Below, piece by piece: positions 12,094 through 46,613 of a stretch of 51,124 bases of DNA. Source of the stretch: a virus (taxonomy: Duplodnaviria > Caudoviricetes). The DNA lies in the IMG/VR virus record IMGVR_UViG_3300044703_000055, positions 1 through 51,124 of that record; one strand, written 5' to 3'. The position numbers and the translations under genes were made by a program. The notes below the pieces were generated by a model. It did not search any database. It was not told the DNA's origin and was given only the letters and a program-made list of their open reading frames with translations. The first letter of the stretch is position 1; each line of letters opens with the position of its first letter.

Positions 12094-12693
12094 ATGAGGC
12101 GTAAGACGTCCCCCGAGCAAGCCGGCAATACCCTTAATCCAAAGAACGAATTGTTCTGCCGCTACTACACTCAAAACTCAGAGCTATTCGGCAACGCCAC
12201 CCACGCATATGCCGAAGCATTCGATTACAAACTCGATACTCTGTCCCAAAAACCGGTCTATTCCGATCCAGATGAGGACGGCAACACCGAGAAAATCGAA
12301 GACAGTGAGTACGACAGAGCTTGTCACGTGTGCGCCGTCGAGGCGTCACGCCTCCTGAGAAAGCCTGAGATTCAGGCTCGCATCACTGTCTTCTTGAACG
12401 AGCTGTTGAAGGACGAGATTGTAGATAGCCAGCTCGCTAAACTTATTACGCAGGACGCGGATAACACTGCGAAGATTGCCGCGGTTCGCGAGTACAATAA
12501 GCTGCGCGGTCGCATTATCGACAAGACGCAACAGGTCAGCCGCTTACCATTCGGAGAAACTGATTTATCCGCAGTGATCGCAGCGCTCCCGCAGGAGCGT
12601 CAAGACTATTTCTATGAAATTATCAAAGGACTTATCGAAGAAGCCGAGCTACTCCGAAGCACTGCAACGGCTCAAGGCGGCGGCACTCGGTAA
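12094..12693 (+). CDS. terS: Terminase small subunit
   Basis: LNPKNELFCRYY...GNATHAYAEAF...ASRLLRKPEIQARI; directly before terL. Confidence 0.85.
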   Translation: MRRKTSPEQAGNTLNPKNELFCRYYTQNSELFGNATHAYAEAFDYKLDTLSQKPVYSDPDEDGNTEKIEDSEYDRACHVCAVEASRLLRKPEIQARITVFLNELLKDEIVDSQLAKLITQDADNTAKIAAVREYNKLRGRIIDKTQQVSRLPFGETDLSAVIAALPQERQDYFYEIIKGLIEEAELLRSTATAQGGGTR

Positions 12694-14242
12694 TCCGGAA
12701 GACATACGCAGACGCTTCGGCCGCACGCCGATCCAGCTCCTCCGGTTCATCGACCCTAAAATCCGCTTCCCGAAGAAGCTGCGCATCATCTTTGCATGCC
12801 TATGGCTTGGACAGGACCTACAGGGCCGCCCGGCTACCCGCTTCATCATGAAAGGCCCGCGAGGCGGCGGCAAAAGCAAGATGCTTGGCGCCCTCGGCTT
12901 CGTCATCTGGTTTCTAAAGCTGCTCAACTGCATCGACATGGGTGGTTCGCTCATGCAGGCGCAGGGAGTCTACAACTACTTCACCGGCCACATATTCGCG
13001 CAGGAGGGCATCTCGGGCGCATTGCCTTCCGAGCCGACGATGCACCGGACGCAGAGCGACAGGGGCAACTACTTCAAGGCCGTGGCCGCATCGCAAAAGC
13101 AGGTGCGCGGTCCGCACCCCGATTGCCTTTTCGTGGACGAGGCGTGCGAAACCAAGGACGAGCTGATCCTGTCCGCGCTGCCAATGGTGGACACGTCGAG
13201 CACGCCGCTCGTGGTCATGACCTCGACCTTCCACAAAATCTTCGGGCTGTTTCAGGAGATATGGGACCAGGCGGACACTTACGAATACGTGCGTCTGTCG
13301 TGGGACGCATTCGATGTCTGCAAGCAGTTCGATCCCGGCATATGGGAGGACGAGAAGTACACGAAGTACATTCCCGACCTTGCAAAGCTGAAGGAGCGCG
13401 CGGCCGGGCGCACCGGAGATCCCGAAGGCTGGGTACCGATCGAGAACATCATCCAGGCGTGGCGTGAAAAGCCATCCATTGACTACTTCGACGTGGAGTA
13501 CATGGGCTCGCGCCCGAGCGCGGCCGGCATGGTCAACGATCCCGAGGACGTAGACGCCTGTGTCATCGACGCGCTGGGCGAGTACGCCTACCGGCCCGGA
13601 GCGGAAACGGCGGGAGGCATCGACTGGGGTTTCTCAGGCATGACCGTCTGGGACGTGGAGATGGCGCACCGGGACAATATCAAGGTGCAGCTTGAAGCAC
13701 GTCACTGGACGCAAGTGCTCTCCGATGTGATCTGTGCGGAGATCGCAGACGACGTGGTGAAGTATCGCATCCGAACCATTCACGCCGATGCTTCCCATCC
13801 CTTTGAGAATGGCGCGCTTCGCAAGGCAATCGCGGAGCGCATCGCGCAGCTCCCCGAGAAAGAGCAGTTTCGCTGCACCGTCGTCGAGGTTCCGTTCGGC
13901 CGACCCGTGCAAATCGCAGAGCAAGACGGCCAGAAGCGCGAGATCAATAAGCGGCTCGGCACCGAGAAGGAAATGATGCTCGGCAACTATCGCGTCTATT
14001 TCCAACGCCGCCTCAATCGCATCCCTCGCACATGCAAGGAGGGTATTTGGCAGCATAAGCGGTACCGATATCAGGAGGGCACCGATAAGCCGCTGAAGGA
14101 GGACGACCACTACCCCGATGCGAAGATGCTCGCCCAAAAACGATGGCTTCTCGGCAAGACCACGAGTGCGATGCCGCGGGAAGAAAAGCTGCGAAAACGC
14201 ACTTCCACAGTCACAGGCGGCTTGCTCGAAGAACGCTTTTAG
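12614..14242 (+). CDS. terL: Terminase large subunit
   Basis: Walker A GPRGGGKS, Walker B LFVDEA, motif III MTST, nuclease GGIDWG and DDHYPDA. Confidence 0.92.
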   Translation: MKLSKDLSKKPSYSEALQRLKAAALGNPEDIRRRFGRTPIQLLRFIDPKIRFPKKLRIIFACLWLGQDLQGRPATRFIMKGPRGGGKSKMLGALGFVIWFLKLLNCIDMGGSLMQAQGVYNYFTGHIFAQEGISGALPSEPTMHRTQSDRGNYFKAVAASQKQVRGPHPDCLFVDEACETKDELILSALPMVDTSSTPLVVMTSTFHKIFGLFQEIWDQADTYEYVRLSWDAFDVCKQFDPGIWEDEKYTKYIPDLAKLKERAAGRTGDPEGWVPIENIIQAWREKPSIDYFDVEYMGSRPSAAGMVNDPEDVDACVIDALGEYAYRPGAETAGGIDWGFSGMTVWDVEMAHRDNIKVQLEARHWTQVLSDVICAEIADDVVKYRIRTIHADASHPFENGALRKAIAERIAQLPEKEQFRCTVVEVPFGRPVQIAEQDGQKREINKRLGTEKEMMLGNYRVYFQRRLNRIPRTCKEGIWQHKRYRYQEGTDKPLKEDDHYPDAKMLAQKRWLLGKTTSAMPREEKLRKRTSTVTGGLLEERF

Positions 14243-14261
14243 CGGGTGATATGATTACCGC

Positions 14262-16481
14262 ATGAAGTTACTCGGCGTCGAAATACGACGCGCTAAAGAA
14301 GCAGCCGAACCGAAGACCACAAAAAAAGGATTGGTGATTGGCGATAGCGGCACGCGCATTCTCGATGGCATCATAAGCGAGGAATACAACACCAAACTTA
14401 ACGGCGCGACGGGCATCGAAGTCTATGACGAGATGCGCAAGAGCGATGGCGCGGTCCGCGCCGCGGTGCAAGCAGTCACACTCCCGATCCGCGCGGCCGA
14501 ATGGTACATCAAACCCGCAAGCGAAGATGCAGCGGACAAGGCGGTCGCCGATTTTGTAACCGAAGAACTATTCAACAATCCATCATTCACGTTCGACGAC
14601 TTCCTGCGCCAAGCGCTTCTTTCCCTGCCGTTTGGCGTCATGGTGTTCGAGAAAGTGTTCACCACGCGCGATGTGGACGGAACGACGCGCATCGTGTGGG
14701 ACAAGCTCGGAGCGCGCATGCCGCGCTCGATTCAGAAGTGGGCGATTGGCGGCGGCAAACTCGGCATCCTGCAAAACAGATCGGACGGACAGCCTGTCGA
14801 AATTCCTTTCGAGAAGCTGATCGTTTTTGTCAACGAGATGGAGGGCGATAACTGGTGGGGCACCTCCATCCTTCGTGCCGCGTATAAGCACTGGTACATC
14901 AAGAATACGTTTTACAAGATCGACGCGATTGCATTCGAGCGCCAGGGGCTCGGCATTCCTTCCGGCACATTGCCGGACAATTACACCGAGCGCGATCGCT
15001 CGACGATGGAAAGCATCCTGAAGAACATGCGCGCGAATTCGCAATCGTATGTCATCAAGCCGAAAGACTACGAGATCGCATTCATGGACATGATGGCGCG
15101 CACCACGCGCGATCCGCAAAGCTCTATCGCTCACCACAACCGCGAGATCATGAAATGCGTGCTCGCCCAATTTCTCGAACTCGGTTCGACGGACGCCGGA
15201 GGTACGGGCGGCTCGCGTGCTCTCTCCGAGGATCACTCGGACCTGTTCTTGCAGTCGATCGAAAGCATTGCACGCTCCATAGCCTCCACATTCACGCGCC
15301 AGGCTGTGAAGGAGCTTGTGGACCTCAACTTCGAGGGAGTGAAACAGTACCCCAGCCTCGACTTCGAGGGCATCACCGCAGACGACGTGCAGGCGCTCTC
15401 CACTGCCTACCAGACGCTCCGTGGCGCGGGAGGCTTGACCGCGCAGGATGCGGACGAGGCTTACCTGCGCAAACTGCTCGGCTTGCCGGAATTGGACGAA
15501 CAAGGCGTGCGGGAGGAGAAGACGACCAATGTGCCGGTTGATCCGAACAATCCCAACCCCGGCACGCAGCAGCCCGATAACAAGCAGCCACCGAAGAAGA
15601 ACGCGAGCGAGCACACCCACGGCGTAAAAAAAAACTTTTCAGATGGCTTTAAGGCGTACCGGAAGCTCACGTTCGCGGAGGAAAAAGTAGATTTCGATAA
15701 GCTGCAGCAGAAGATGGACGAGCTGGAAAGCCAGTTCGACCAAGCCACGAAAAATATGCTGCATGATGCGCGCGACGAATACATGGCCGCATTCACGAAG
15801 GCAGCGCATGCCGGCGACACGCAGGCGATCAAGGACGCTACGCTAAAGGTGCAGAGTGACTACGCGCGGATAATCAAGAACGCGGGCAAGTCCGCATTCG
15901 AGTATGGGAAAAACAATGCGGCAAAAGAGATCGGCGTAGGGGCTCCGCCGAATCCGTCTGACCTTCTCCGGCAGATCGACATACAGGCGGATACGATTGC
16001 CGACGCACATATCACCGAGATCATATCCGACAGCAAACAGGCGTACGTGCAGGCGCTCAATAAGGGGCTATCGGTCACAGCCGCCCTCGCCGCAGCGGAT
16101 GCGGCAGCGGAAGCGGCTATTGACGCGCTCACGGACGACACCGGCGGTATTCTCCTATCCGCGTACATCAATCATGGCCGCAACGAGGTGTTCGACCGAA
16201 ACAGCGCAGACGTGCACGCGCTACAGCGTTCGGAAATTCTCGATGAGGTGACGTGCAACTATTGCATGTCGATTGACGGCCGCATTATCGAGAAGGACGA
16301 TGCATTTGGCCAGAACACCATCTTCCATAGCAACTGCCGTGGCATTTGGGTCGCGATCCTAAAGGACGAGGAGGAGCTGCCGAAAATCAGCGGCATACCG
16401 CAGTCACTGCGGGATCGGTTCGGAGATGCGGTGAATGATCTTATTCAGCCGAAGAGCCCGATCACGAGAAAACGGAGTTAA
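14262..16481 (+). CDS. Portal protein (DUF935/Mu gp29-like) fused to gpF-like head morphogenesis domain
   Basis: WWGTSILRAAYKHWYIK...FERQGLGIP portal motif; C-terminal SEILDEVTCNYCMSIDG...FHSNCRGIWV; TG-A-TATGAT 6 nt before ATG. Confidence 0.88.
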   Translation: MKLLGVEIRRAKEAAEPKTTKKGLVIGDSGTRILDGIISEEYNTKLNGATGIEVYDEMRKSDGAVRAAVQAVTLPIRAAEWYIKPASEDAADKAVADFVTEELFNNPSFTFDDFLRQALLSLPFGVMVFEKVFTTRDVDGTTRIVWDKLGARMPRSIQKWAIGGGKLGILQNRSDGQPVEIPFEKLIVFVNEMEGDNWWGTSILRAAYKHWYIKNTFYKIDAIAFERQGLGIPSGTLPDNYTERDRSTMESILKNMRANSQSYVIKPKDYEIAFMDMMARTTRDPQSSIAHHNREIMKCVLAQFLELGSTDAGGTGGSRALSEDHSDLFLQSIESIARSIASTFTRQAVKELVDLNFEGVKQYPSLDFEGITADDVQALSTAYQTLRGAGGLTAQDADEAYLRKLLGLPELDEQGVREEKTTNVPVDPNNPNPGTQQPDNKQPPKKNASEHTHGVKKNFSDGFKAYRKLTFAEEKVDFDKLQQKMDELESQFDQATKNMLHDARDEYMAAFTKAAHAGDTQAIKDATLKVQSDYARIIKNAGKSAFEYGKNNAAKEIGVGAPPNPSDLLRQIDIQADTIADAHITEIISDSKQAYVQALNKGLSVTAALAAADAAAEAAIDALTDDTGGILLSAYINHGRNEVFDRNSADVHALQRSEILDEVTCNYCMSIDGRIIEKDDAFGQNTIFHSNCRGIWVAILKDEEELPKISGIPQSLRDRFGDAVNDLIQPKSPITRKRS

Positions 16482-16487
16482 TCCTGA

Positions 16488-17381
16488 CTACGATTCGGCT
16501 TTGCCGGACCGTTTCAATAGACCTTTAAGTGCATCGGCAACCGGCTTGCCACCGACCAACACGGCCGATACGGCAACCGCCGTCTGACCTCCCGCTCCAG
16601 CTAAGGAGCAGATGGTAACTGCCGACAAGAACATGCTCATGTCGTATGCCTTCGCACATATCTTCTCGTGACCCCTGTCCCACCAGTTGCGAACACCATC
16701 GGAAAAAGATCGAACCGATTTATTAATGTTCTTTTCCCTTTCCTCCGGGTGTGATTTAGACGCTTCAATGTTCTCGGTTAGCGCGTGTAACTCGGTCCTA
16801 AGATTTTCATAATCCGCGATCTGCGCGTCACGATTAGCAATAGCCTCCTCTGAATTCGGCCGCTCTTGACGCAGGGCAGCAAGTTTCTCGTCAAGCAGTA
16901 ATCGCAATGCAGATGATAATAGAAGGATTTGCGGCCTGTTGGCCGAGACGGATTTAATCACCTTTTTGCCACGAACATTCTGGCCAGAGGTTGAATTTCG
17001 CCGTTTTTCGTCGGTCAACCCTCCAACAATTTCTTCAAGTTCTTTGAAAGTCCAAAGGCGTGCATCCGCTTTACGAAAGCGGGCTTTAGCTCGGGGAGTA
17101 TACTCGTTGGTCACCACCCACAATTCGTCCGCTTCGCGGGGAAGAAATGACGATTCCCATGCCCGAAGCACCGTATTCGCATTTCCACTGTTAAATGGCC
17201 TTTGATAGTCCTTACACTCGATCGCATATCGCCGCTTGACACCTGCTTGCGCTGCCTCGGCCAAGAGATCAACCGTAATTCCCTGTTGTATAACACCTTT
17301 GTCAACTATGAAGCCGGCCCGTCTTAAAAGCTCTGCGACATGAGTGGCCAGCGGGTGCATTTCTCGAGATTTGGCAGACAT
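16488..17381 (-). CDS. Mrr-like PD-(D/E)XK endonuclease domain protein (moron)
   Basis: VAELLRRAGF, VDLLAE, YAIECKDY, WVVTNEYTPRA; antisense insert in head operon. Confidence 0.75.
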   Translation of the reverse strand: MSAKSREMHPLATHVAELLRRAGFIVDKGVIQQGITVDLLAEAAQAGVKRRYAIECKDYQRPFNSGNANTVLRAWESSFLPREADELWVVTNEYTPRAKARFRKADARLWTFKELEEIVGGLTDEKRRNSTSGQNVRGKKVIKSVSANRPQILLLSSALRLLLDEKLAALRQERPNSEEAIANRDAQIADYENLRTELHALTENIEASKSHPEEREKNINKSVRSFSDGVRNWWDRGHEKICAKAYDMSMFLSAVTICSLAGAGGQTAVAVSAVLVGGKPVADALKGLLKRSGKAES

Positions 17382-17485
17382 CGGGTTTGCGCGTGCTCCC
17401 CACTTCTTCCGAATAAAATGGACGTTATCAACAGATGCACCAGCCAGTTTCGGATATTGACAGAGATGGGCTGTATCATGACATC

Positions 17486-18703
17486 ATGAGCAAGAAAGAG
17501 CGCGATAGCAAGAAGCGAATCGCGTTCGTGCAGCTCTTCGCGGAAGCGTCGTCTTCCACGGCAGTACCGGAGGAGATACACGTTGTCCCAACGGGCAAGT
17601 GGGATCACCCGGTATACGGCGAGATGGAGATCACGCCGGCAGACATCGCGGAGTTCATACAGAACTTCAGTCGCGGTGTCCGCCGAGATATCCCCATCAC
17701 GCAAGGCCATGACAATGGCATGAGTGGAGGCGAGTTGCCCGCGATCGGCTGGTTCACAGAACTAAGCGATCGTGGATCAAGCGGCCTTTACGCTTCGGTC
17801 AAGTGGACCGATGAAGGCAAGCAGCTCCTTACAAGCGGTTCGTTCAAGTATTTCTCCCCGGAGTTTTACGAGCAGTACAGCGACCCGGAAACGGGCGTGA
17901 AGTACGGGCACGTGCTCGTGGGAGGCGCACTGACGAACAAGCCGTATTTCAAAGAGCTTGACCCGGTAGCCGCATTTAGCGAGCCGGAGATTAGAAATCA
18001 ATTTAATGATGATATGACACTGAAAGATATAATGGCAAAGAAGCCCAACGAACTCTCCGAGACGGAGAAAGCATTCGTTCGGGAACATAAAGGGGAACTC
18101 ACCGCGGAGCAGACTACTGCTTTTGCAAGCGTGTTCGATGAATCCGCCCCGGAGGAATCCGAGGAGGAGAAGACGGCGCGCGAGGAAAAGGAGAAGGGTG
18201 ACGCGAATGAGGCGAACGGGTTGAACCGCGACGGTTCGGCCAAAGTGGACGCATCTGAGAAAGTAATGGTTTCGGCGGCCGAACTTACTCTCCTCCGCCA
18301 AAAGGCGGATAAGGGGCAGGAAGCATTTTCGCTCGTTGAGACGATGAAGCTCGAATCCGAAATCTCGAAGATGGTCTTCACAGAGGCCAATAAGGAAGGA
18401 CGAATTCTTCCGAAGCAGCAAAAGTCCGTCGTTGACTTTATGAAAACGCTTTCCGAGAAGCAGCGCGATCAATTCCGCAACATCGTCAATAATCTTCCGA
18501 CCTATAAGTTGTTCGGAGAGATGGGCGATGCGGGCGGGGAACCGGCCGCAACGAAGGCAGCGGAAGTTGAGGTGGCAATCAACGCCAAGATCAAGGCGTC
18601 TGAAGGCAAGCTCTCGTACTCGGACGCGCTCTCGCAGGTTTCTAAAGAAAACCCGCAGCTCATCAAGGAATACAACGACGAGATGCAGGCCAACCGCGGT
18701 TAA
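17486..18703 (+). CDS. Mu gpI-like prohead protease/scaffold
   Basis: IHVVPTGKWDHP, AIGWF, VKWTDEG...FKYFSPEF, LVGGALTNKPYF; acidic coiled-coil scaffold tail. Confidence 0.88.
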   Translation: MSKKERDSKKRIAFVQLFAEASSSTAVPEEIHVVPTGKWDHPVYGEMEITPADIAEFIQNFSRGVRRDIPITQGHDNGMSGGELPAIGWFTELSDRGSSGLYASVKWTDEGKQLLTSGSFKYFSPEFYEQYSDPETGVKYGHVLVGGALTNKPYFKELDPVAAFSEPEIRNQFNDDMTLKDIMAKKPNELSETEKAFVREHKGELTAEQTTAFASVFDESAPEESEEEKTAREEKEKGDANEANGLNRDGSAKVDASEKVMVSAAELTLLRQKADKGQEAFSLVETMKLESEISKMVFTEANKEGRILPKQQKSVVDFMKTLSEKQRDQFRNIVNNLPTYKLFGEMGDAGGEPAATKAAEVEVAINAKIKASEGKLSYSDALSQVSKENPQLIKEYNDEMQANRG

Positions 18704-18727: not shown

Positions 18728-19093
18728 ATGTCTACACAAATTACTGGCCACGTTCGCAGCTCGACTGCCGACGCGGCCATCACGCTCCACCAGGTGCTGA
18801 AGAACACTTCGACCGGCGTGGACGTGGCAACCGCCGGCACCGATAAAATCGTTGGCGTTGCGCAAAACGCAGCGGCTACGGGCGAACAGGTGGGCGTTCA
18901 GTTCACCGGCACTGCGAAGTGCATCGCATCGGCAGCTATTAGCAAGGGCGCGTGGGTCACTGCGACCACGGGCGGCAAGGTCGTCACGACCGTGACCGAC
19001 AAGAACGTCGTACTCGGCCAAGCATTGGAGGCGGCAGCGGCTGACGGCGACTTCATCGAAGTCCAGCTCGGTATCTTCACGCTCTCCGTTTAA
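18728..19093 (+). CDS. Capsid cement/decoration protein (DUF2190-like)
   Basis: IVGVAQNAAATGEQVGV...LGQALEAAAADGDFIEV, between protease and capsid. Confidence 0.75.
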   Translation: MSTQITGHVRSSTADAAITLHQVLKNTSTGVDVATAGTDKIVGVAQNAAATGEQVGVQFTGTAKCIASAAISKGAWVTATTGGKVVTTVTDKNVVLGQALEAAAADGDFIEVQLGIFTLSV

Positions 19094-21829: not shown

Positions 21830-21839
21830 CAAAACGATT

Positions 21840-33160: not shown

Positions 33161-33173
33161 TCACAACTCGAAT

Positions 33174-34107: not shown

Positions 34108-34210
34108 GTCGGTCCTAGCGCTCTCTCCCCTTTGCGCACTCATAGGCGCTTCGACAAAGAGGGAGAGCGGTGGGTCAAACCACCACTTATAAACTAGCAA
34201 CTGAAATTAT

Positions 34211-38511: not shown

Positions 38512-38529
38512 AGGATCGGGATCGATTCA

Positions 38530-38922
38530 ATGCCAAAGCCAGGCGAACCGAAAGTAATCAGGAAGCTACTGAGGAAGCTTCGAGCTGCCCCGCTAACCCC
38601 CTTCCCGCCCCCACGGAAGTCCGTTGAAGCGCCTAACGAGCATGGCGTTTACATCATTTATTCTCCGAGGAGACGCGAAGTCCTGCACGTCGGACGAACC
38701 TACCGTGGTGCAGGCGGACTGCGCAAACGACTGCAAAATCATCTTCATGGCGCGTCATCATTCACACATACATACCTTGAGGGTCATGGTGCCATTTTGC
38801 GAAAGGGATATGCGTTTCGTTGTCTGGCTGTGAAGCGAAGCAGGCAACGCGCCCTCTTGGAGCTTTACGCAACCGGCGTTCTCTGTCCTGCGCATCTCGG
38901 CACCCACGTCGGGGATGAGTAG
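38530..38922 (+). CDS. GIY-YIG nuclease-like protein
   Basis: HGVYIIY...VLHVGRT...LRKRLQNH...LLE. Confidence 0.72.
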   Translation: MPKPGEPKVIRKLLRKLRAAPLTPFPPPRKSVEAPNEHGVYIIYSPRRREVLHVGRTYRGAGGLRKRLQNHLHGASSFTHTYLEGHGAILRKGYAFRCLAVKRSRQRALLELYATGVLCPAHLGTHVGDE

Positions 38923-39034
38923 CAACCACGTGCGATAATTTGGGTGGGCAGCTCTGTTTTCGCGGCTGGCGAATCCCGCACGCAGATTCTGTCGGTGATG
39001 CGGAATAAATACGTGCCGCGATCTGCCAGCCCAT

Positions 39035-39790
39035 ATGAACAAGCTCATCATCGGCCTCGCCGACAAAACTTCCGCGCTCCCCACTAAGCAGGGGTTTCTT
39101 TTAATAGACGACGGACCGATAGCAGACCATTTTTTAAAGAAGCAGAAGCGTGCGGTGCTCTTTGACCACGCAGAACACAGCCTCAATCCGCTTGCGGGAA
39201 TGACCTACCAGCAGGCGCGGGAACTCACCGCGGTCTTGTACGGCTCGGAGGGAAAGGACACGCTCACGGTGCGCAACGGCAAGCGCTCACTGACGCGAAT
39301 GCTCCTCGAAGCGGACAGCCTCGACAAGATTAAGGGAGGAAAGAGCGACGCCGATAAGGAGGCTCAGGCTACGGTAGACGATATCCTTCTCTCGCCCGTC
39401 TTACGGGACGTCCTATGCCGGCGGACGAACTTCACCTTCAAGGAAGGGCAATCGATTGTCGCCAAGATCAATCGTGCGGAAATTGGAGACAACGACGCCT
39501 TTATCCTTGGCTCGCTGCTTATCTCCCAATTCAAGGGGCAGATCATTGTCCCTGATTTTGGATTTTACGCGCGAGACTTCCACGCCTCCTTAGTCCGTCA
39601 GAACCGCCTCATCGCGGGGATCTATTCGCTCTCCGAACTGGACAAGAAGCTCCGGCAGCTCTGCCTCTTGATGCCGAAGGTGCCGCTGCAATGCACTGTG
39701 GAGGATGCCCAGGTGCTGGCTTTATATGAAGGCCTGACGCCGGGCACCGTCGCATACTCGGACTATGTGTCGGGCGCGGTGGGTGCCTAG
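39035..39790 (+). CDS. Degenerate VirD4/TraD-like ATPase-fold protein
   Basis: LIIGLADKT, FLLIDDG, HSLNPL, LLSPVLRDVL, IVAKINRAEIGD..AFILGSLLI track the motif order of 4906-7047. Confidence 0.65.
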   Translation: MNKLIIGLADKTSALPTKQGFLLIDDGPIADHFLKKQKRAVLFDHAEHSLNPLAGMTYQQARELTAVLYGSEGKDTLTVRNGKRSLTRMLLEADSLDKIKGGKSDADKEAQATVDDILLSPVLRDVLCRRTNFTFKEGQSIVAKINRAEIGDNDAFILGSLLISQFKGQIIVPDFGFYARDFHASLVRQNRLIAGIYSLSELDKKLRQLCLLMPKVPLQCTVEDAQVLALYEGLTPGTVAYSDYVSGAVGA

Positions 39791-39865
39791 GCGGAGTTGG
39801 CAGGAGCTGGGGGAATTGTATTCTGGAGTTGTGCCGGTACAATCACCTCAACTTGGGGGATTTCG

Positions 39866-40543
39866 ATGGCTGAGCACACCAAAGCCCACCTTTGGATCAA
39901 TACATGCATAGCAGTACTTGCGTTTGTCGCTTCTGGTGCCACTGCCATGTTGTCATGGTGGACATATCAGCTGAAAAGCGAATCTCTAGGCTTTACCACT
40001 AGAGCGAACTATGACTGTAGAATACAGTTCGTAAAATTTGGGAACACCGGCGTTCTTGGCATTTGCGCTTCCGTCACTATTACAAATCAAAGCGATATTC
40101 GTACCTCAATCGTGTCCTATGACACTCATTCCGTTGTAGACGGCGCGACCTCACACTTTAGTGGTTTCACAGAGCTGGAGGACGAAAACGGAAAGCAAAT
40201 TGCGCTTCCTGTTGCAATCGGCGCAGGCGATCCGCTCGCTTATGTGATGCGTGTGCCGATCACAGTTCCACAATCTGTCACCCAGATAATAGATAAGATG
40301 GGAGGGAGTGCACCTCTGTCTTCATTAACACTTGATAATTTGATGGACGAAGTACTTAGGTCCGCCATCGATCTAATCGGTAACCCGGTCGAGGTGCATC
40401 CGGATAGCGGCCGCAAGCTCGTAACGTATGGGCGATCTGCGAATGTCGTCATCGCCTTTATGAGATTTCATACGGGGCGCCACAATACCTTTACTGCTAA
40501 ATTCACCTACCCGCCCAATTACAGTGATTATCCCACCCATTGA
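39866..40543 (+). CDS. Membrane-anchored hypothetical protein
   Basis: N-terminal TM, beta-rich remainder (SVTITNQSDIRTSI); TACAAT and GGGGGA upstream. Confidence 0.65.
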   Translation: MAEHTKAHLWINTCIAVLAFVASGATAMLSWWTYQLKSESLGFTTRANYDCRIQFVKFGNTGVLGICASVTITNQSDIRTSIVSYDTHSVVDGATSHFSGFTELEDENGKQIALPVAIGAGDPLAYVMRVPITVPQSVTQIIDKMGGSAPLSSLTLDNLMDEVLRSAIDLIGNPVEVHPDSGRKLVTYGRSANVVIAFMRFHTGRHNTFTAKFTYPPNYSDYPTH

Positions 40544-40593
40544 GGCGGAGCTGGGGAATTGAAGGAACTGCGCTACAGGAACGGCGCCAAGGG

Positions 40594-41379
40594 ATGCAGA
40601 AAAAGGCTATGTCCTTGAAGTTTTTTCGAGACTTCCCTAAAACTATTCGGCGCACCCTTTATGAATCCACCTTACCGCTTTTCGGTGGGGGAGCATGGGT
40701 TGCATGGTCTTGGTATAAAACTCTCCCATTTTTTGAAGCGTTGTCCGGCTTCGGAATAGGTTACCTTTTTGTTCTTTCCGTTCAAGGGCAATTCTTGCGC
40801 ATCGCAAAGAACGTTCGTGATGAAAGCGATGCGGATGAATTTCGCGGATCATTTGCGACCTTACAGCAGGGTCTGGATGAATTGCGCAGACTCACTGCAC
40901 GAAGCGGGTCAACACAGCCGTCAACGACCGTCCTTATTCCGGCCCCGGAGGCCTCCGACATCGCGGAACTTGACTTCGCGAAACAGGCGAAACGGTTACT
41001 TGCAGAGGGATACTATTACGCGGCCGTTTTGGTCGCTGCTGTCGGCTTCGAGCGCGCCGCCCGTGAAATATATATGAAAGTGGATTGGCGAGGAAAACGC
41101 GTGCCACTTGGAAGGATTATACGCGATTTTTCTCTCAAACTTGCAAACCGCGATGATATTGAGACTCTGGAAACCTTGAATCGGCTGCGCAACAATATCG
41201 TCCATGCTCAAGGTGAGGCGCCTTGGATCGGAAAGACTCAGGCCGAGGAGATGGTAGCTGCGTTCGAGAAGGGCTCCTCATTATTAACCGGTGCCTTTAC
41301 TGGTTTCGACGAAGATATCTATATAGACCACGAGCAAAGTGACTGGGAGCGTTCATCACGCGGTGTCACAATGAGATAA
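40594..41379 (+). CDS. 2-TM plus HEPN-like domain protein
   Basis: Two TM segments; YYAAVLVAAVGFE and LNRLRNNIVH (R-x4-H). Confidence 0.65.
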   Translation: MQKKAMSLKFFRDFPKTIRRTLYESTLPLFGGGAWVAWSWYKTLPFFEALSGFGIGYLFVLSVQGQFLRIAKNVRDESDADEFRGSFATLQQGLDELRRLTARSGSTQPSTTVLIPAPEASDIAELDFAKQAKRLLAEGYYYAAVLVAAVGFERAAREIYMKVDWRGKRVPLGRIIRDFSLKLANRDDIETLETLNRLRNNIVHAQGEAPWIGKTQAEEMVAAFEKGSSLLTGAFTGFDEDIYIDHEQSDWERSSRGVTMR

Positions 41380-41454
41380 CGGTACTTATGGGTTGTTTGC
41401 ATGTTGTTTCGAGTGTGGATAGCGAACACGAACGCTTGTGCTATGATGGCGACT

Positions 41455-41592
41455 ATGATCGAAACACTATCTCTTGGCCAACAGCTTGCGGCACTTTCTT
41501 TGAAAAAGCGACGTAAGACCCTGCGTACAAAAAAGGCGTGGAGCGACCATATGAAGAAGGTTCGCGCAGCGGCGCTTGACAAGCGTTCGTAA
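41455..41592 (+). CDS. 45-aa basic protein, candidate regulator
   Basis: MIETLSLGQQLAALSLKKRRKTLRTKKAWSDHMKKVRAAALDKRS; TG-C-TATGAT 7 nt upstream. Confidence 0.55.
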   Translation: MIETLSLGQQLAALSLKKRRKTLRTKKAWSDHMKKVRAAALDKRS

Positions 41593-41606
41593 TCAACGCC
41601 GAGCAG

Positions 41607-41652
41607 TTATCCACATGGACGGACGAGCGTTCGTCACTTACAATTATCCACG
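41607..41652 (+). promoter_or_regulatory. Sigma70 promoter flanked by DnaA-box-like sites
   Basis: TGGACG(41616-21)-N17-TACAAT(41639-44); TTATCCACA at 41607-15 and TTATCCACG at 41644-52. Confidence 0.65.
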
Positions 41653-41845
41653 GATGGAAAGGAGCGGTGGCGGAATAGAAAACGCAACCACAGTGCGCGT
41701 ACTGCATTGCAAATGGGAAATGCAGGTAAACAGCGGGAGCCCAAAAAGTTCATGCGGCGCTTGCGGGGTGACTTACCTAGTGAGGGTCGCGCCCTCTAAA
41801 GGCGAAGACGGATGCCTTCAAATCCTCGCCCGCTTCAATCCATCT
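41652..41845 (+). ncRNA. tRNA-like RNA with expanded anticodon-arm and T-loop insertions
   Basis: Acceptor GGAGCGG/CCGCTTC+A, D arm GCG-GAATAGAAAA-CGC, T stem GCGGGG/CCTCGC with TTCAAAT, outer stem GGATGGA/TCCATCT. Confidence 0.6.
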
Positions 41846-41866
41846 AGCTCATTCACACAACAAATA

Positions 41867-41988
41867 GCGGATACAGGGCTTACGGGGGAGCGAGTGTGAG
41901 GTCGCGCGGCGGTTGGGCTTCACACCGATACTGGTGGTGCACTACCAGTTGGCTGAGGCTCCGCGCCTCCCCGCAAGTTCTGTATCGC
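41867..41988 (+). ncRNA. Multibranch structured RNA candidate 2
   Basis: GATACAGGGCTTACGGGG pairs with CCCCGCAAGTTCTGTATC; inner hairpins GTGTGAGGTC/GGCTTCACAC and ACTGGTGG/CTACCAGT. Confidence 0.5.
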
Positions 41989-41993
41989 AGACA

Positions 41994-42102
41994 CATCGGA
42001 AGTGGACTGCTGGAAGACAGCTCTAAGGTTGTCGTCGGAGCGACGGCGTAACACGCAACCTGATAACGCGCCGTTTGAGCCTCCAGCCGCCCCCTTCCGA
42101 TG
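41994..42102 (+). ncRNA. Multibranch structured RNA candidate 3
   Basis: CATCGGAAG/CTTCCGATG closing stem, GCTGGA/TCCAGC, AGGTTG/CAACCT. Confidence 0.45.
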
Positions 42103-42294
42103 ATCACCAGCTAACCAATTGAATTATGGCAAGATGCATTTGCGTCTGCGGCAACGAGCACGAGATAGACGACCAACTCGACAACGATGCCGCAGACGAA
42201 GAATTATCAGGGTAGCTAATCAACTTAATAGCCTTATGCCCTCCATCCCGCGTACCCATAAGGCGCGCGGGGTAGAGGGAAAACAAAATCAATT

Positions 42295-42462
42295 ATGGGT
42301 TGGAAACAACAAATGGCTCAGTTGCGAGCCAAGAGTAAACGGCCGTCAAATTCCAAGCGAGCGCGTGGGCTTTGCCAGCACGACGGCTGCGAGGGCAAGC
42401 GACGGGCAAACTCTACCAGATGCGCGGAACACGCGCCAAAGAAGCGAGCGCCACGCATATGA
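42295..42462 (+). CDS. 55-aa basic Cys/His zinc-finger protein
   Basis: Manual translation ...GLCQHDGCEGKRRANSTRCAEHAPKK...; ATGA overlap with next. Confidence 0.55.
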   Translation: MGWKQQMAQLRAKSKRPSNSKRARGLCQHDGCEGKRRANSTRCAEHAPKKRAPRI

Positions 42463-42662
42463 GCTACACGCTAAAGAAGCACACCATCGTCTACACGTTC
42501 TACCACCTGCACCGCAAACAAGAGATCGTCTACAGCCGCTACACAGATCGAGGGCGGCAGATCGAGGCGGAGATGCTTCGCGAGCGGCGCGAGAAGGCCG
42601 CGCGGCATATCTCCATATTCGCAGCCTTTGGCTTTACGAGCTTCACCGCCGCATATGCCTAA
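42459..42662 (+). CDS. Hypothetical protein
   Basis: MSYTLKKHTIVY...; chained overlap. Confidence 0.5.
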   Translation: MSYTLKKHTIVYTFYHLHRKQEIVYSRYTDRGRQIEAEMLRERREKAARHISIFAAFGFTSFTAAYA

Positions 42663-42804
42663 CGCCGCGCGCCTCGCCTTCCTTGCCAAATACGGTCGCA
42701 GCGAGACCGACGTGTGGATGGATAGCCAAGGCAAGGAATACATCTACGTGGGAGATTACCGCAGGCTGTACTTAGAGGAGGGATTACCACATCAAAATAA
42801 ATAA
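42655..42804 (+). CDS. Hypothetical protein (49 aa)
   Basis: MPNAARLAFLAKYGRSETDVWMDSQGKEYIYVGDY...; ends 2 nt before nuclease gene. Confidence 0.5.
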   Translation: MPNAARLAFLAKYGRSETDVWMDSQGKEYIYVGDYRRLYLEEGLPHQNK

Positions 42805-42806
42805 CT

Positions 42807-43745
42807 ATGAAGAAGATCATTCGAGAGACAGATGAAAAACTAGGAATCGTACAAGTCACTATCGCAGACGAACGCTGGTACATGAGGCCAGCGAAAGACC
42901 CGGTAACGGGATTGCCCACACACTTGGCCGTCCCGTCCGTCACCTGGATTGCCGGTCACTACCCCAAGGGTATCGGCTTTTATAAATGGCTCGCAGACCG
43001 AGGCTGGGACGAGGCGCAGGCTGTAAAGCAAGCCGCGGGCAACAAGGGCTCGAAAGTCCACGCGGCCATCAGCGCCATCATCGAGGGCGAAGAAGTCCGC
43101 ATTGATAGCAAGTATCTCAATCCCGAAACCGGCGTGTTCGAGGAACTCACACTCGAAGAATGCGACGCCATTAAATCGTTCGTCGATTGGCAGAAGGCAA
43201 CGAACCCGGAGACGATCGTGCAAGACGTGACGATCTTTTCGGAGAAGTACAACTACGCCGGAACGATTGACTACATCTGCAAGATCGACGGGAGGGTCTA
43301 TCTCGTCGATTTCAAGACGAGCGCGGAGGTGTGGCCGGAGTACGAGCTGCAGGTGTCGGCCTACAAGCAGCCCTTGCAGAATGCGGAATTCAGCATTCCC
43401 GGGTTCGTGGACGTGTCCGACATCCAGCTTGCCATCCTGCAGATCGGCTACCGACGCAACAAGGCCGGGTACAAGTGGAACGAGATCGAAGATCAGTTCC
43501 CCCTATTCCTGGCGGCTCGGCAAATCTGGGCGAAGGAGTGCGACGGCCAGCAGCCGAAGAAGCGCGATTACCCGATTGTGCTTTCACCGAAGCGCAAGGC
43601 ACCGCAGGTCGATGAGCCGAAGGAACAGTTGCCATTACCAGAAGATAAGTACGAAGCCGAGGCCGAACCCGAGCCTATGCCCGAGGCCGCGCCCGAGCCT
43701 ATGCCCGAGCGACCGCCGCGAAAGAAGGCGAAGGCCGCCAAATAA
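42807..43745 (+). CDS. PD-(D/E)XK exonuclease (Cas4/RecB-like phage recombination nuclease)
   Basis: PSVTWI, GSKVHAAI, YAGTIDYI...YLVDFKTS, LQVSAY; Pro/Glu-rich tail. Confidence 0.85.
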   Translation: MKKIIRETDEKLGIVQVTIADERWYMRPAKDPVTGLPTHLAVPSVTWIAGHYPKGIGFYKWLADRGWDEAQAVKQAAGNKGSKVHAAISAIIEGEEVRIDSKYLNPETGVFEELTLEECDAIKSFVDWQKATNPETIVQDVTIFSEKYNYAGTIDYICKIDGRVYLVDFKTSAEVWPEYELQVSAYKQPLQNAEFSIPGFVDVSDIQLAILQIGYRRNKAGYKWNEIEDQFPLFLAARQIWAKECDGQQPKKRDYPIVLSPKRKAPQVDEPKEQLPLPEDKYEAEAEPEPMPEAAPEPMPERPPRKKAKAAK

Positions 43746-43748
43746 CAT

Positions 43749-43988
43749 ATGGACAGACCTATTTCGCCCAAGTCCCGCACCGTCGCCCTTGTGCTGTGCT
43801 TCTTCTTCGGTGCACTCGGTATCCACCGCATCTATGTCGGGAAGCTGGGGAGCGGCACCACAATGATCATCGTGAGCCTCACCATGATCGGCCTGCTGGT
43901 CACTGGCGTGTGGGCGTTCGTGGACATGGTCGTGATCGCGTGTGGGCAGTTCCGCGATGCAGAAGGGCAGCTTATTAGCAACTGGTAA
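43749..43988 (+). CDS. TM2 domain membrane protein
   Basis: KSRTVALVLCFFFGALGIHRIYVGK...WAFVDMVVIACGQFRDAEG. Confidence 0.9.
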   Translation: MDRPISPKSRTVALVLCFFFGALGIHRIYVGKLGSGTTMIIVSLTMIGLLVTGVWAFVDMVVIACGQFRDAEGQLISNW

Positions 43989-43993
43989 AACCT

Positions 43994-44128
43994 ATGGACG
44001 ACGCAGAACGTGACGAATACGAGAAGCAAATAAAGCAGCTCAACGAGCAGCTTGACGACGCAATGGAGCAGCTAGGAAGCGCAATCGAACTATTAAACGA
44101 AATAAGACGCATGACCAAAAATGTATGA
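43994..44128 (+). CDS. 44-aa coiled-coil protein
   Basis: MDDAERDEYEKQIKQLNEQLDDAMEQL...; ATGA overlap with next. Confidence 0.55.
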   Translation: MDDAERDEYEKQIKQLNEQLDDAMEQLGSAIELLNEIRRMTKNV

Positions 44129-44967
44129 CTACCGAAACACCATTCGACCCATCAGTAGCTAGTGGAGAAAGCAATTACAACGCGCCGCGCCCTCTCGAAT
44201 TGAACGAGGTGATGCTAAACGGCGACGGTGACGTGAACGAAGTGACGCCGGGAAAATTCGAGCGCAAAGGGGGTTACTTCCGCAAGCGCCTCATCGTCGG
44301 TAATCCCAAGGGGGAGAAGCCCGAGGAAGTGAACCTTGGCACCGAAGTCAGGCTGGTATTCCTCAAAATCCGCCGCCGCCTGGTGCAGCGCGGCGCAGAC
44401 GGCAAAATCGTCCGCTCTACAACCGAGCACAATGCCCCGAACGAATCCGTGTTCCTTTACGAGGACGGTTCAAAGCAGCCGGTAGCCGGTGTCGCGTCGG
44501 ATCTCCGCACGAAGCACGAGGGCTTGCGTACCGTGCAGCACGTCTACGCACTTCTGCTTGGCGCGAAAGAGCCGGAGTTGGTGAAGCTGGTCCTTAAAGG
44601 CGCGTCGCTCGGCAGTGACGTGAAGGCAGATGGCGTGACGAAGTTCTACGAGTACCTTGGCTCATTCGGGAAGGAGCACTTCTACGAATACGAGACGGTG
44701 CTGAAGCCCGTGTTCGAACAGGGGAAGAAATCGTACTTCGCCATCAACTTCGTTCGCGGCGAGAAGCTAGACGCCGCGACGTACGCCCTTGCCATGCAGC
44801 ATATGAAAGCCGTGCACGAAAAGTGCGTGGAGATCGACACAGCACGTGCGTTGAAGATCGCGAGAGGCGTCACGAGTGACATCGTGCCGGACGGGGAAGC
44901 GGCGCCGGAGGAGACAGGCGTCGAATACCCAAAGGACGACATTAATCCGGATGATATCCCGTTCTAG
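44125..44967 (+). CDS. Putative ssDNA-binding/annealing protein
   Basis: SSB-type acidic tail EYPKDDINPDDIPF; near exonuclease. Confidence 0.65.
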   Translation: MTTETPFDPSVASGESNYNAPRPLELNEVMLNGDGDVNEVTPGKFERKGGYFRKRLIVGNPKGEKPEEVNLGTEVRLVFLKIRRRLVQRGADGKIVRSTTEHNAPNESVFLYEDGSKQPVAGVASDLRTKHEGLRTVQHVYALLLGAKEPELVKLVLKGASLGSDVKADGVTKFYEYLGSFGKEHFYEYETVLKPVFEQGKKSYFAINFVRGEKLDAATYALAMQHMKAVHEKCVEIDTARALKIARGVTSDIVPDGEAAPEETGVEYPKDDINPDDIPF

Positions 44968-44969
44968 CT

Positions 44970-45278
44970 ATGGGAAAGCATCTTCACGAGTGCGAAAAAT
45001 GCGAGCGCTCATTCGCAACCGCACGAGGGCTACAACAGCACGATCGAAAAGCTCATCCCTATATCCCACCGCCGCCTCCAAAACGTGAAACGCACACTGC
45101 ACCGGATGAGTACGAGAACCATACATTGATAGGCGGTAACACGTTGTCTCTCGGCGACATCGTATGGGTTGGTCGAAAGACCGTCATCACGTCTATTACC
45201 AAAACCGAAGGCTCTAAAGACGTGTCGGTCGTGCTTCGGATCACACGCAAATGGTGGAGCGCAGAGGAAATCTCGTAA
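44970..45278 (+). CDS. C2H2 zinc-finger protein
   Basis: HECEKCERSFATARGLQQHDRKAH. Confidence 0.75.
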   Translation: MGKHLHECEKCERSFATARGLQQHDRKAHPYIPPPPPKRETHTAPDEYENHTLIGGNTLSLGDIVWVGRKTVITSITKTEGSKDVSVVLRITRKWWSAEEIS

Positions 45279-45281
45279 CCT

Positions 45282-45611
45282 ATGCCCCTCACCATCGAAC
45301 GCATCGAACAGCGCATGAAGGGAGTGGAACTCACGCCGCGGCAGGTACGCGATTACAAAACGTACCTGACGGCGATCTACTCCCTTTATGCCGGTGAGAT
45401 GAAGCAGATCGCCACCGCGCGAGCAAGCGCGTGGCTCGACATCCGCGCCGAGAAGAACAGCGACAAGGCCGCGGATCGCGAGTGGCACACGACGCCTAAG
45501 GGTATCCGCGAGATCGAACTGAAATGGGACATGCGCCGGATCGACAAACTTATCAGCGCCCTCAATACGCACATGCGCGTCATGGAAGGCGAAGCTAAAA
45601 ACATCATGTAG
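45282..45611 (+). CDS. Helical protein, UvsY-like (tentative)
   Basis: KNSDKAADREW...coiled coil, in recombination block. Confidence 0.5.
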   Translation: MPLTIERIEQRMKGVELTPRQVRDYKTYLTAIYSLYAGEMKQIATARASAWLDIRAEKNSDKAADREWHTTPKGIREIELKWDMRRIDKLISALNTHMRVMEGEAKNIM

Positions 45612-45613
45612 GT

Positions 45614-45889
45614 ATGGAGCCTATTGGAGCGATCGTTCAGAAAAAGACTATCGAAAGGCCGAGCCGAAAGACCGAACGCGGGGAATTCCTGCAAGAATTC
45701 TTGCAGAACATTAAACCAGGTTGGGACGCCGCCCGCTTCGGAGAATTGACGATCGGGCGTATCGCGAGAAAACTTCAGGGCGTTCCAACTAAGGATCTGT
45801 ACTACCTCAAACGTGTTTGCGAGGACAGCAAGAACTACGCAAAGCGGTTCTTCTGGGAGCTTAATGCCGAGAAGCACAACAATCTATGA
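45614..45889 (+). CDS. Hypothetical protein
   Basis: Chained operon ORF. Confidence 0.65.
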   Translation: MEPIGAIVQKKTIERPSRKTERGEFLQEFLQNIKPGWDAARFGELTIGRIARKLQGVPTKDLYYLKRVCEDSKNYAKRFFWELNAEKHNNL

Positions 45890-46218
45890 ACCAACCAACG
45901 CAGCAAGAGCGGATATTGAAGGTGCTCGAATCCGTCCGCGACGGCACACACCAGATCGCCGACGAGTACATTCGCCATCATCCCAGCGGAGACGGCGTAA
46001 GCGCCCGATACTTCAAGCAAGTCATGCTTATTTCGGAAGTGAACGGCCGCATTAGCGAGCTACGGGCGAAGGGTCGCGACATCGAGACCAGCAAGCAGAA
46101 GGATCGGTACGGCTTCGCCTACCATCGGCTTGCGCCGGATCGCGCCGCCCTCAGCCCCGCCGAGCTGATCGCGTGGAGTAAGGAGGCGGTTAAAAAGGAA
46201 TTTCCCACTACTGTATGA
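45886..46218 (+). CDS. Winged-helix DNA-binding protein
   Basis: TQQERILKVL...NGRISELRAKGRDIET...AYHRL. Confidence 0.7.
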   Translation: MNQPTQQERILKVLESVRDGTHQIADEYIRHHPSGDGVSARYFKQVMLISEVNGRISELRAKGRDIETSKQKDRYGFAYHRLAPDRAALSPAELIAWSKEAVKKEFPTTV

Positions 46219-46352
46219 GAACCAGAAAAGAGATAGAGGAAGGAGCATCGAATTTTGCACCCGATGGTATGGAGAACATGCGGGGTTCAATGTTGGAAGT
46301 CCTCCTCGACATCCGAGACCTCCTTACCCGCCCACCAGCGGCGACGCTATAA
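46215..46352 (+). CDS. 45-aa hypothetical protein
   Basis: MRTRKEIEE...LEVLLDIRDLLT...; ATGA overlap. Confidence 0.55.
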   Translation: MRTRKEIEEGASNFAPDGMENMRGSMLEVLLDIRDLLTRPPAATL

Positions 46353-46355
46353 GGT

Positions 46356-46613
46356 ATGAACGACTGGAAAAAGGAATTCGACGACACATTCATCCCTGTT
46401 TACTTCGACGCTGAAAGTCGGCGTGATCGGTACACGCACATGAGTGGTAAGCCGGGAGAAATCAAAGCATTCATCTCCCGCCTCCTCGAAGAGCAGAAGA
46501 AGCGGCATGTCAAGATTTTGGATGGACTAAAACTGGACCCATGGAACGGTAAGGGTGATTGGGATCACGCTCTGGCCGCGGCAATTAGAAGGATCACCGG
46601 CGGCAACGCCTAA
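46356..46613 (+). CDS. Hypothetical protein
   Basis: MNDWKKEFD...IKAFISRLLEEQ. Confidence 0.6.
   Translation: MNDWKKEFDDTFIPVYFDAESRRDRYTHMSGKPGEIKAFISRLLEEQKKRHVKILDGLKLDPWNGKGDWDHALAAAIRRITGGNA

Follow-up and report, generated by a model that had tools for sequence, protein, structure and literature searches.

The 51,124-base IMG/VR virus record IMGVR_UViG_3300044703_000055, analysed here over its whole length (the window; all coordinates are window positions), contains a complete temperate tailed phage of ∼48.8 kb; its integration site is the 3′ end of a tRNA-Ala gene, and its host a soil alphaproteobacterium. The features expected of a provirus are present: a recombinase gene at one end, repeats at both ends, one of them in a tRNA gene, and genes for terminase, portal, capsid and tail proteins (Table 1). 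No transposase was found in the element, which is therefore not a Mu-like transposable phage; its integrase lies at the attachment (att) site. Host DNA beside the provirus extends for ∼2 kb on the left and ∼0.3 kb on the right; the protein encoded at positions 1–954 of the left flank has 71% and 65% identity to genes of an Alphaproteobacteria metagenome-assembled genome (MAG) and a Beijerinckiaceae MAG. We describe here the start context of the core genes of this phage, most of which begin with an ATG directly preceded by T and have no Shine–Dalgarno (SD) sequence, a style that is shared by a phage lineage and differs from that of the sampled host-like chromosomes.

Starts were assigned by a ‘blind’ rule, in which codon bias served to select the open reading frames (ORFs) and the 5′-most ATG, GTG or TTG was always taken as the start, and by curation of 37 core starts; a preliminary context list held the 5′-most starts of 64 ORFs. 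An SD-like 4-mer was defined as GGAG, GAGG or AGGA at −17 to −5. By the blind rule, the late plus-strand genes (12000–34900) had T at −1 in 20 of 24 cases (0.83) and an SD-like 4-mer in 0 of 24; for the early plus-strand genes (38500–47100) the counts were 9 of 10 (0.90) and 1 of 10. In the curated list T(−1) was found at 35 of 37 starts (the exceptions are the portal gene, 14262, and the protease gene, 17435) and an SD-like 4-mer at one (45282). An earlier note on this DNA had claimed that the core genes start with T-ATG without an SD, which both assignments bear out. Its individual examples of T(−1) at terL (12614), 4906, 7134, 11436 and 39035 were all confirmed, and among the early starts that it described, T stands at −1 in the 13 examined (42126, 42295, 42655, 42807, 43749, 43994, 44125, 44970, 45282, 45614, 45886, 46215 and 46356). 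The first three of these belong to tentative ORFs of 29, 55 and 49 aa, respectively, which overlap a 213-aa ORF at 42134–42775. As to the statement that genes near the att ends are preceded by SD sequences, it held at 3462 (AAGGAG) and 49909 (GGAGG) and failed at the start of the ArdC gene (9665).

Controls within the phage gave much lower values. T precedes 21% of all ATG trinucleotides in 12000–34900 (n = 320); among the in-frame ATG codons inside 31 core genes, it precedes 12 of 130. SD-like 4-mers occur in 11.4% of random core 13-mers. Inside genes, SD-like words are as frequent as expected from codon shuffling (GGAGG, 47 observed versus 42.3 expected; GGAG, 139 versus 139.1); they are not avoided within genes, and the absence of SD is thus a property of the start regions only. 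T(−1) at the starts and the lack of SD were confirmed as real, start-specific and far above chance.

The leaders have further properties in common. At each position from −13 to −5, G is present at 1–5 of the 37 curated starts, against 27% G overall, and A is enriched there (A(−5) at 20, A(−7) at 19, A(−8) at 16 and A(−6) at 12 of the 37 starts); A(−3) is found at 6 of 37. The GC content at −20 to −1 is 44% versus 55%, and start windows (−30 to +30) fold more weakly than random core windows (mean of −9.4 versus −13.6 kcal/mol; Mann–Whitney p = 4e-6).

For comparison with chromosomes we used stand-ins for the host: the two MAGs nearest to the flank (G001 and G002, 65–71% identity at one flank protein) and 18 further genomes of their order or class, each represented by one stretch (17 of the same order as G002 and one out of the class sample). 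By the blind rule, G002 (∼217 kb, n = 179) had T(−1) at 0.13, C(−1) at 0.50 and SD at 0.31 of starts; G001 (∼89 kb, n = 80) had T(−1) at 0.24 and SD at 0.30. In the 18 further genomes (280 starts), T(−1) was found at 60, C(−1) at 91 and SD at 69 starts, with a top single-genome T(−1) of 0.35. At tight same-strand junctions, where the choice of start is least ambiguous, the window has T(−1) in 21 of 28, C(−1) in 4 of 28 and SD in 3 of 28 cases, versus 7 of 45, 22 of 45 and 21 of 45 in G002. Given a background of 8–11% for SD-like words in random 13-mers, the sampled chromosomes use SD at 25–47% of starts, i.e. at 2.5–4.7 times the background, and favour C at −1, with T(−1) at 13–24% (the two MAGs and the pooled further genomes); in the phage, SD is not enriched over the background and T is favoured. 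A T(−1) enrichment was looked for in genes of host relatives and not seen, and the view that the start style is foreign to the host chromosome is supported for the sampled host-like chromosomes.

A search of a large protein collection with the large terminase subunit (TerL) of the phage yielded 378 proteins. The nearest named TerLs belong to Bradyrhizobium sp. GM5.1 (73% identity, 8.1-Mb contig), Bradyrhizobium sp. ORS 285 (68%, 7.8 Mb) and Rhodospirillales bacterium 69-11 (60%); one further named homologue lies on a 19-kb contig binned as Planctomycetota. TerL alignment retrieved 80 IMG/VR loci, and the blind rule was applied to each of the 70 loci of at least 8 kb. The 40 loci with TerL identity of at least 42% (hereafter the clade; GC 32–62%) had T(−1) at 373 of 679 starts (55%), a pyrimidine (Y) at −1 at 533 of 679 (78%) and SD at 44 of 679 (6%), with a maximum SD share per locus of 0.20. 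In the 30 loci with TerL identity of 23–36% (GC 42–71%), T(−1) was found at 66 of 402 starts (16%), Y(−1) at 191 of 402 and SD at 155 of 402 (39%), with a median SD share per locus of 0.375. The two sets differ with Fisher p ∼1e-37 for T(−1), and likewise for SD.

Within the clade neither T(−1) nor SD shows a significant correlation with GC content. High-GC members (19 loci, 220 ATG starts) and low-GC members (20 loci, 310 ATG starts) have T(−1) at 0.62 versus 0.64 and G(−1) at 0.06 versus 0.02, and a G-poor, A-rich tract runs from −13 to −5 in both; A peaks at −6, −8, −11 and −13 in the profile of the clade, and in the low-GC relatives A(−6) reaches 0.70 and A(−3) 0.57. The only genes common to the whole clade are those of the head module (TerL, portal, protease, cement, capsid and the next gene), and the signature extends to the non-homologous genes of each clade locus. 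In a quick TerL tree (Shimodaira–Hasegawa-like approximate likelihood ratio test, SH-aLRT, support; midpoint root; the careful search was unfinished), the window falls in an all-high-GC group of 17 rows (SH-aLRT 99) that adjoins, and is flanked by, lower-GC rows, and high GC arose at least twice. The TerLs of this 17-row subclade are 60–74% identical to that of the window, and all members carry the signature. These data support the start context as an inherited trait of the phage lineage with this head module, not a style of the host chromosome. What the earlier note had proposed, that the core comes from a low-SD lineage, is accordingly upheld in the form of a phage-lineage trait, which separates the 40 clade loci from the 30 distant ones.

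A TerL search in 401 genomes of the class gave one weak match (29% identity, E-value 1.9e-7) and in 401 genomes of the order none, and a metagenome scan for TerL found five loci, two of them on contigs of 77 and 129 kb. Neither the DNA of the head region nor the TerL protein had a match among 50,697 deposited phage records. The portals of the window and of a relative (L007) had ∼30–35% identity over half their length to those of deposited phages (34% at best for the window); the matches listed were mostly from actinobacterial phages and were of no help on hosts. In the ESM Atlas, TerL fell only into terminase-like clusters, which carried no host signal of use. Temperate siphoviruses with a Mu-type head module have the same Portal_Mu, Mu-like protease I, cement and capsid E families, along with an integrase and a tRNA att site; the window differs from them in a TerL that belongs to no Pfam family (terminase matches in PHROG only), in the lack of a deposited-phage match and in its divergent portal.

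Many TerL homologues (P0021–P0050) are 488–508 aa long and cover ∼91% of the query. Without an SD to mark the true start, automatic gene callers may have set the starts of these proteins too far downstream.

We read the signature as a lineage-inherited, selectively maintained SD-independent initiation with U(−1)AUG, neither copied from the host nor freshly imported, and consider this account probable, with appreciable room for doubt. Each step of the mechanism is one that we infer. Ribosomes would bind an open, A-rich, G-poor and weakly folded leader without SD pairing or, alternatively, would stay on the mRNA after ending the upstream gene, usually 4–16 nt before the next ATG. The start would then be fixed by a four-base (‘quadruplet’) pairing of U(−1)AUG with C34-A35-U36 and the unmodified A37 of the initiator tRNA. 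The tRNA-Met genes found in two relatives read CTCATAA in the loop, position 37 being A (these are genes of the relatives and not of the host initiator tRNA). On the quadruplet pairing, Hollerer and Jeschek (PMC10018350) refer to previous work on chloroplasts by Esposito et al.

The elements of this account have counterparts in known systems. In E. coli, U(−1) raises translation via pairing with A37 of tRNA-fMet, as concluded from A37G and A37U variants, ∼45,000 leaders and proteomics (Hollerer and Jeschek 2023, PMC10018350). A U directly 5′ of the start codon favours initiation in this as in our case; there, however, it is one modulating effect on SD-containing reporter leaders, whereas in the phage U(−1) stands at nearly all curated starts, without SD and throughout the lineage. 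Real starts of E. coli are marked by A-rich leaders and little structure, and these favour initiation without SD pairing (Saito, Green and Buskirk 2020, PMC7043885). The phage has the same enrichment of A within 15 nt upstream and the same lower mRNA structure at starts, but what stands beside an SD on most E. coli genes apparently replaces the SD genome-wide in the phage. Initiation in Bacteroidia is likewise SD-independent with an A-rich, G-poor leader (Baez et al. 2019, PMC6847099; Jha et al. 2021, PMC7797042), and adenines at −3, −6, −12 and −13 matter in Flavobacterium (PMC6847099). The phage differs in its alphaproteobacterial host, in the lack of A(−3) enrichment in the window and in having U(−1) as the strongest position. 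Moreover, the trait of having the anti-SD sequestered by bS21/bS18/bS6 belongs to the host ribosome; a family search found no ribosomal protein S21 gene in the element, and there is no translation factor among the annotated proteins of the window.

Several points weigh against SD-independent initiation with U(−1)AUG as an inherited phage trait. The chromosomes compared only stand in for that of the host, and the SD contrast with them is moderate, as they reach no more than 25–47% SD under the same crude rule; the single SD-like 4-mer among 37 curated starts is not significantly under the phage's own background of 11.4% (p = 0.12). The chromosomes already favour a pyrimidine at −1 (in G002, 0.50 for C plus 0.13 for T), and part of the signal may be this common Y(−1) preference moved from C to T. 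Some clade members favour C(−1) (0.79 in L056, 0.52 in L052 and 0.52 in L071), which is at odds with the pairing because C cannot pair with A37. In the passages of PMC10018350 drawn on here, the U(−1) effect is not shown as large and is termed small in one comparison, and near-invariant U(−1) may need a further cause. Finally, all starts, and the use of these starts by cells, are deduced from sequence.

A more far-reaching proposal, to which we give limited credence, is that the whole head-module clade carries a host-independent initiation dialect, in which Y(−1), mostly U, on a G-poor, A-rich leader is kept by selection across host shifts as a privileged or portable form of phage translation. 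The leaders might work on any bacterial ribosome; alternatively, the phage might impair SD-dependent initiation, shutting off the host while its own SD-less messages continue. The translation cargo of some relatives fits this proposal, since transfer-messenger RNA (tmRNA) genes (three loci) and initiator-like tRNA-Met genes (two loci) would suit a lineage that tampers with initiation.

It is unlikely, in our judgement, that the phage simply matches its host, the true hosts being SD-poor with the same leader style at least in highly expressed genes. This explanation draws on the modest SD use of the alphaproteobacterial samples (0.25–0.31 by the blind rule, 21 of 45 tight junctions), on their pyrimidine preference at −1 and on a study (Hockenberry et al., bioRxiv 10.1101/2021.04.21.440840) in which the start regions of temperate phages are reported to be like those of their hosts; the present lineage would be an exception to this. 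It has to be set against T(−1) of 0.13–0.24 in the two nearest MAGs and of 60/280 in the 18 further genomes (none above 0.35) versus 0.83–0.90 in the phage, and against an SD use well over the background in the chromosomes and unenriched in the phage. In addition, the signature occurs in relatives with GC contents from 32% to 62%, which can hardly share one host style.

The earlier note, reminded of phages of the candidate phyla radiation (CPR, or Patescibacteria), had taken the signature to imply a cross-phylum host jump or shuttle. In such a case, the core would have been recently gained from a lineage infecting SD-less bacteria (CPR or others), and the start style would be unadapted baggage. 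We find this unlikely. The position of the high-GC subclade next to and between lower-GC rows of the TerL tree agrees with it, as do the very A-rich, SD-less leaders of the low-GC relatives; cluster look-ups of ten low-GC-type TerLs found no named cellular genome with such a TerL, which would fit uncultured hosts. However, the signature is uniform in all 17 rows of a subclade whose TerLs have diverged to 60–74% identity and which has members in Bradyrhizobium chromosomes of 7.8 and 8.1 Mb, and this argues for long residence and not for a fresh import; a recent cross-phylum jump or shuttle is thus unlikely. The GC content of the element (∼55%) is up to 20 points away from that of low-GC relatives, yet T at −1 was retained, which points to selection. 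Perfect att repeats and the integrase speak for normal lysogeny in this host. Nothing ties the clade to CPR: the named TerLs nearest to that of the window, listed above, lend no support to an origin from CPR phages, and a full-text search of open-access papers listed none that ties SD to CPR or Patescibacteria or gives an account of CPR start contexts. Whether the nearest homologues are ordinary SD-using alphaproteobacterial phages has a divided answer, as they are alphaproteobacterial prophages and not SD users; like the comparison with host relatives, this check leaves the observation unrefuted.

For the low-GC relatives, intergenic regions of 13 loci are rich in TATAAT (32 versus 17.1 expected, z = 3.9), and the −7 motif of Bacteroidota, TAnnTTTG, is not enriched there (7 versus 5.9 expected; mononucleotide shuffles in both cases); this is weak evidence against Bacteroidota hosts of these members, and counts against the host-jump explanation as well. 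A Bacteroidia-type host was rejected for the window itself, where the flank protein is nearest to Alphaproteobacteria and Beijerinckiaceae MAGs and the TerL relatives lie in Bradyrhizobium and Rhodospirillales.

The attL junction was checked in public contigs. In one run (X1), possibly that of the source sample, pieces matching 1247–1785, 1756–1898, 1869–2010 and 2008–8000 overlap as a chain, none of them reaching 31 or more letters past both ends of the 53-nt repeat; a second run (X2), from an independent soil sample of another study, has near-identical pieces of the flank (1–831) and of the phage (2262–6420) and no bridging piece. Ten further runs (X3–X12) cover small shares of the window only, and no inference was drawn from them. 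No signs of a chimera were seen in this check of the attL side, and overall no evidence of a recent jump or of a chimera was found.

Termination–reinitiation coupling is known in the late operons of phages, and the window shows such packing too: along 22 kb of same-strand operon, neighbouring genes overlap or lie very close together. If packed genes were translated by re-initiation alone, the SD would be dispensable and T(−1) a by-product of stop–start junctions. A stop triplet lies within 20 nt upstream of 30 of the 37 curated starts, mostly at 4–16 nt, and ATGA overlaps (d = −4) are found at 4906, 11436, 25002, 44125 and 45886. Nevertheless, we rate pure coupling as improbable. T(−1) is also present at the seven starts that have no stop triplet within 20 nt and after gaps of 19–60 nt (18728, 19113 and 20112); starts that keep it in the absence of an adjacent upstream stop include 12614, 21533, 34446, 39035, 45886 and 46215, and those over a long gap 18728 and 20112. 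Coupling alone is therefore no explanation. The frequent overlap forms TAATG and TGATG would place A or G, not T, at −1, and tight junctions of a host relative (G002) keep their SD (21/45) and have T(−1) in only 7/45.

That the signature is an artefact of start choice, as might be feared from the hand-picked starts and from the three short early ORFs (29–55 aa) overlapping a 213-aa one, was tested and rejected as very improbable, since the blind longest-ORF rule and the tight-junction rule give the same result and the clade stands apart from everything else when the blind rule is run on 70 further loci and ∼30 stretches of chromosome.

Initiation without SD, A-rich leaders and an effect of U(−1) were all known before; the novelty lies in their joint occurrence, as a signature that is heritable and nearly invariant, in a phage lineage at odds with the chromosomes of its likely hosts. 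A limited search of the open-access full-text literature, which is no proof of absence, found no prior description of such a lineage. If lineage-inherited initiation with U(−1)AUG is the correct account, it would present a natural case in which a phage of likely SD-using hosts initiates genome-wide without SD, the U before AUG being nearly invariant. It would also give in vivo evolutionary support to the four-base pairing of the initiator tRNA, so far measured mainly with reporters. Start-context style would then be a heritable phage trait able to disagree with the host, which bears on host prediction from ribosome-binding site motifs. Gene callers that lean on SD may misplace starts in such phages, as the ∼91% coverage of TerL homologues may reflect, and the lineage would be a source of compact, possibly host-portable leaders for expression in Alphaproteobacteria.

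Table 1. Features of the window, in order of position (a dot marks a feature without strand; empty cells, nothing to report)
Feature	Position	Strand	Remarks
NMT1-like solute-binding protein, host flank	1–954	−	AGGA-containing purine stretch before start, G(−1)
attL	1985–2037	.	Left copy of a perfect 53-nt direct repeat (100% identity, spacing 48758)
Tyrosine integrase	2170–3357	+	Adjoins attL; Phage_integrase 8.5e-11, Arm-DNA-bind_3 1.1e-9; GTG start, no SD, C(−1)
72-aa ORF (called xis in the earlier note)	3462–3680	+	AAGGAG upstream, G(−1); no Pfam family; among the few SD-led genes of the element
P-loop protein	4906–7047	+	Weak TrwB/HerA-like matches; T(−1)
Left-arm ORF	7134–7958	+	T(−1)
Left-arm ORF	8660–9310	+	
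ArdC-like protein	9665–10570	+	No SD seen before start
Left-arm ORFs	11116–11439; 11436–11642	+	T(−1) at 11436
Small terminase	12010–12693	+	
TerL	12614–14242	+	PHROG terminase matches only; no Pfam family
Late operon	12614–34901	+	TerL through lysis; 24/26 curated starts T-ATG, SD-like 4-mer at 0/26
Mu-type portal	14262–16481	+	Pfam; start exception, C(−1)
Mrr-type nuclease	16488–17381	−	Inserted between portal and protease; G(−1), outside the signature
Mu-like protease	17435–18703	+	Pfam; start exception, G(−1); alternative in-frame ATG 17486 has C(−1)
Cement protein	18728–19093	+	
Capsid	19113–20051	+	Capsid E family
Tail tube-like protein	27155–28135	+	
Putative tail chaperone	28139 (start)	+	
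Tape measure	28669–30357	+	
Hub-like protein	30361–31827	+	
Lysis genes	32942–34901	+	
Peptidoglycan-binding lysin	∼33174–34107	+	PG_binding_1 in ORF 33271–34107
Caspase fused to FGE-sulfatase	34727–36616	−	Peptidase_C14, 3.8e-22; FGE-sulfatase, 2.7e-53; cargo gene outside the signature
Early region	39035–46613	+	Most proteins without family; 11/11 curated starts T-ATG (39035, 42807, 43749, 43994, 44125, 44970, 45282, 45614, 45886, 46215, 46356)
115-aa ORF near attR	49909–50256	+	GGAGG upstream, C(−1); SD-led gene inside the element
attR	50743–50795	.	Right copy of the 53-nt repeat, within the 3′ part of tRNA-Ala(GGC)
tRNA-Ala(GGC)	50748–50823	−	Holds the attR copy

Two of the left-arm ORFs, 4906–7047 and 8660–9310, recur in 9 and 10, respectively, of 15 high-GC relatives, and are thus phage genes and not parts of a second element. 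The slot between portal and protease, filled by the Mrr-type nuclease in the window, holds other cargo in relatives. The caspase–FGE-sulfatase fusion may be a defence or signalling protein.

Over window positions 1–8000, contig depth in run X1 was 38–49 on the host-flank pieces and 25.7–30 on the junction pieces and the phage (contig depths are rough), and variant letters were seen at 1786 and 1798 in the same run. The flank may be shared by more than one strain, some of them without the prophage.

The T-ATG rule predicts better gene models at two places. In the region 21533–22469, the T-ATG at 21840, directly after the stop of ORF 21533–21829, is the most likely start of the long ORF that had been listed as beginning at 21687; with this start the product has 209 aa, and the ORF at the equivalent position in a relative (L003, 17183–17812) is equally long. 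The start at 33174 agrees with a frame plot of GC content at third codon positions (GC3). Here the lysin region is split over two frames, with GC3 high in the frame of T-ATG 33174 up to ∼33400 and then in that of ORF 33271–34107; this could be a +1 frame change through mutation, assembly error or design.

Translation-related RNA genes were seen in several relatives. Full-length one-piece tmRNA genes (Rfam RF00023, 70–75 bits) are present at L048:6528–6874, L063:14942–15321 and L071:14600–15020, the latter two filling the portal–protease gap. The tag peptides given by ARAGORN for all three have ends other than the usual ...LAA. Phage-borne tRNA-Met(CAT) genes lie at L036:7390–7462 (plus strand) and L041:4540–4613 (minus strand), both with the anticodon loop CTCATAA. 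Their acceptor stems, read by eye, have an unpaired 1:72 (A/A and T/T), which we take to be an initiator-like feature; positions 2–7 of the L041 tRNA presumably match the E. coli initiator stem. At L048:7229–7307 ARAGORN calls a tRNA with a four-base anticodon (caca; Rfam tRNA, 42 bits), which may be a frameshift-type tRNA or a mis-call.

The sub-branch of L063 and L071 has ACC ATG G contexts, with C(−1), A(−3) and no SD (e.g. L063:17182 and 19746; L071:17531 and 20096). This context is near the eukaryotic Kozak consensus.

The putative tail chaperone gene ends with AGT AAA AAA AAA TAA (an A9 run at 28472–28480), and between it and the tape measure gene lies a 57-codon ORF (whole region, 28139–28665). 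The layout resembles the G/GT type, but a simple −1 slip on the A9 run does not join the chaperone to this ORF, as there is a TGA at 28486 in that frame. The gene at 23680–25005, with a weak tape-measure-like PHROG match, contains three tandem 54-nt (18-codon) repeats at 23938–24099 and a fourth copy 273 nt further on, at 24319–24372; the copies are 63–78% identical.

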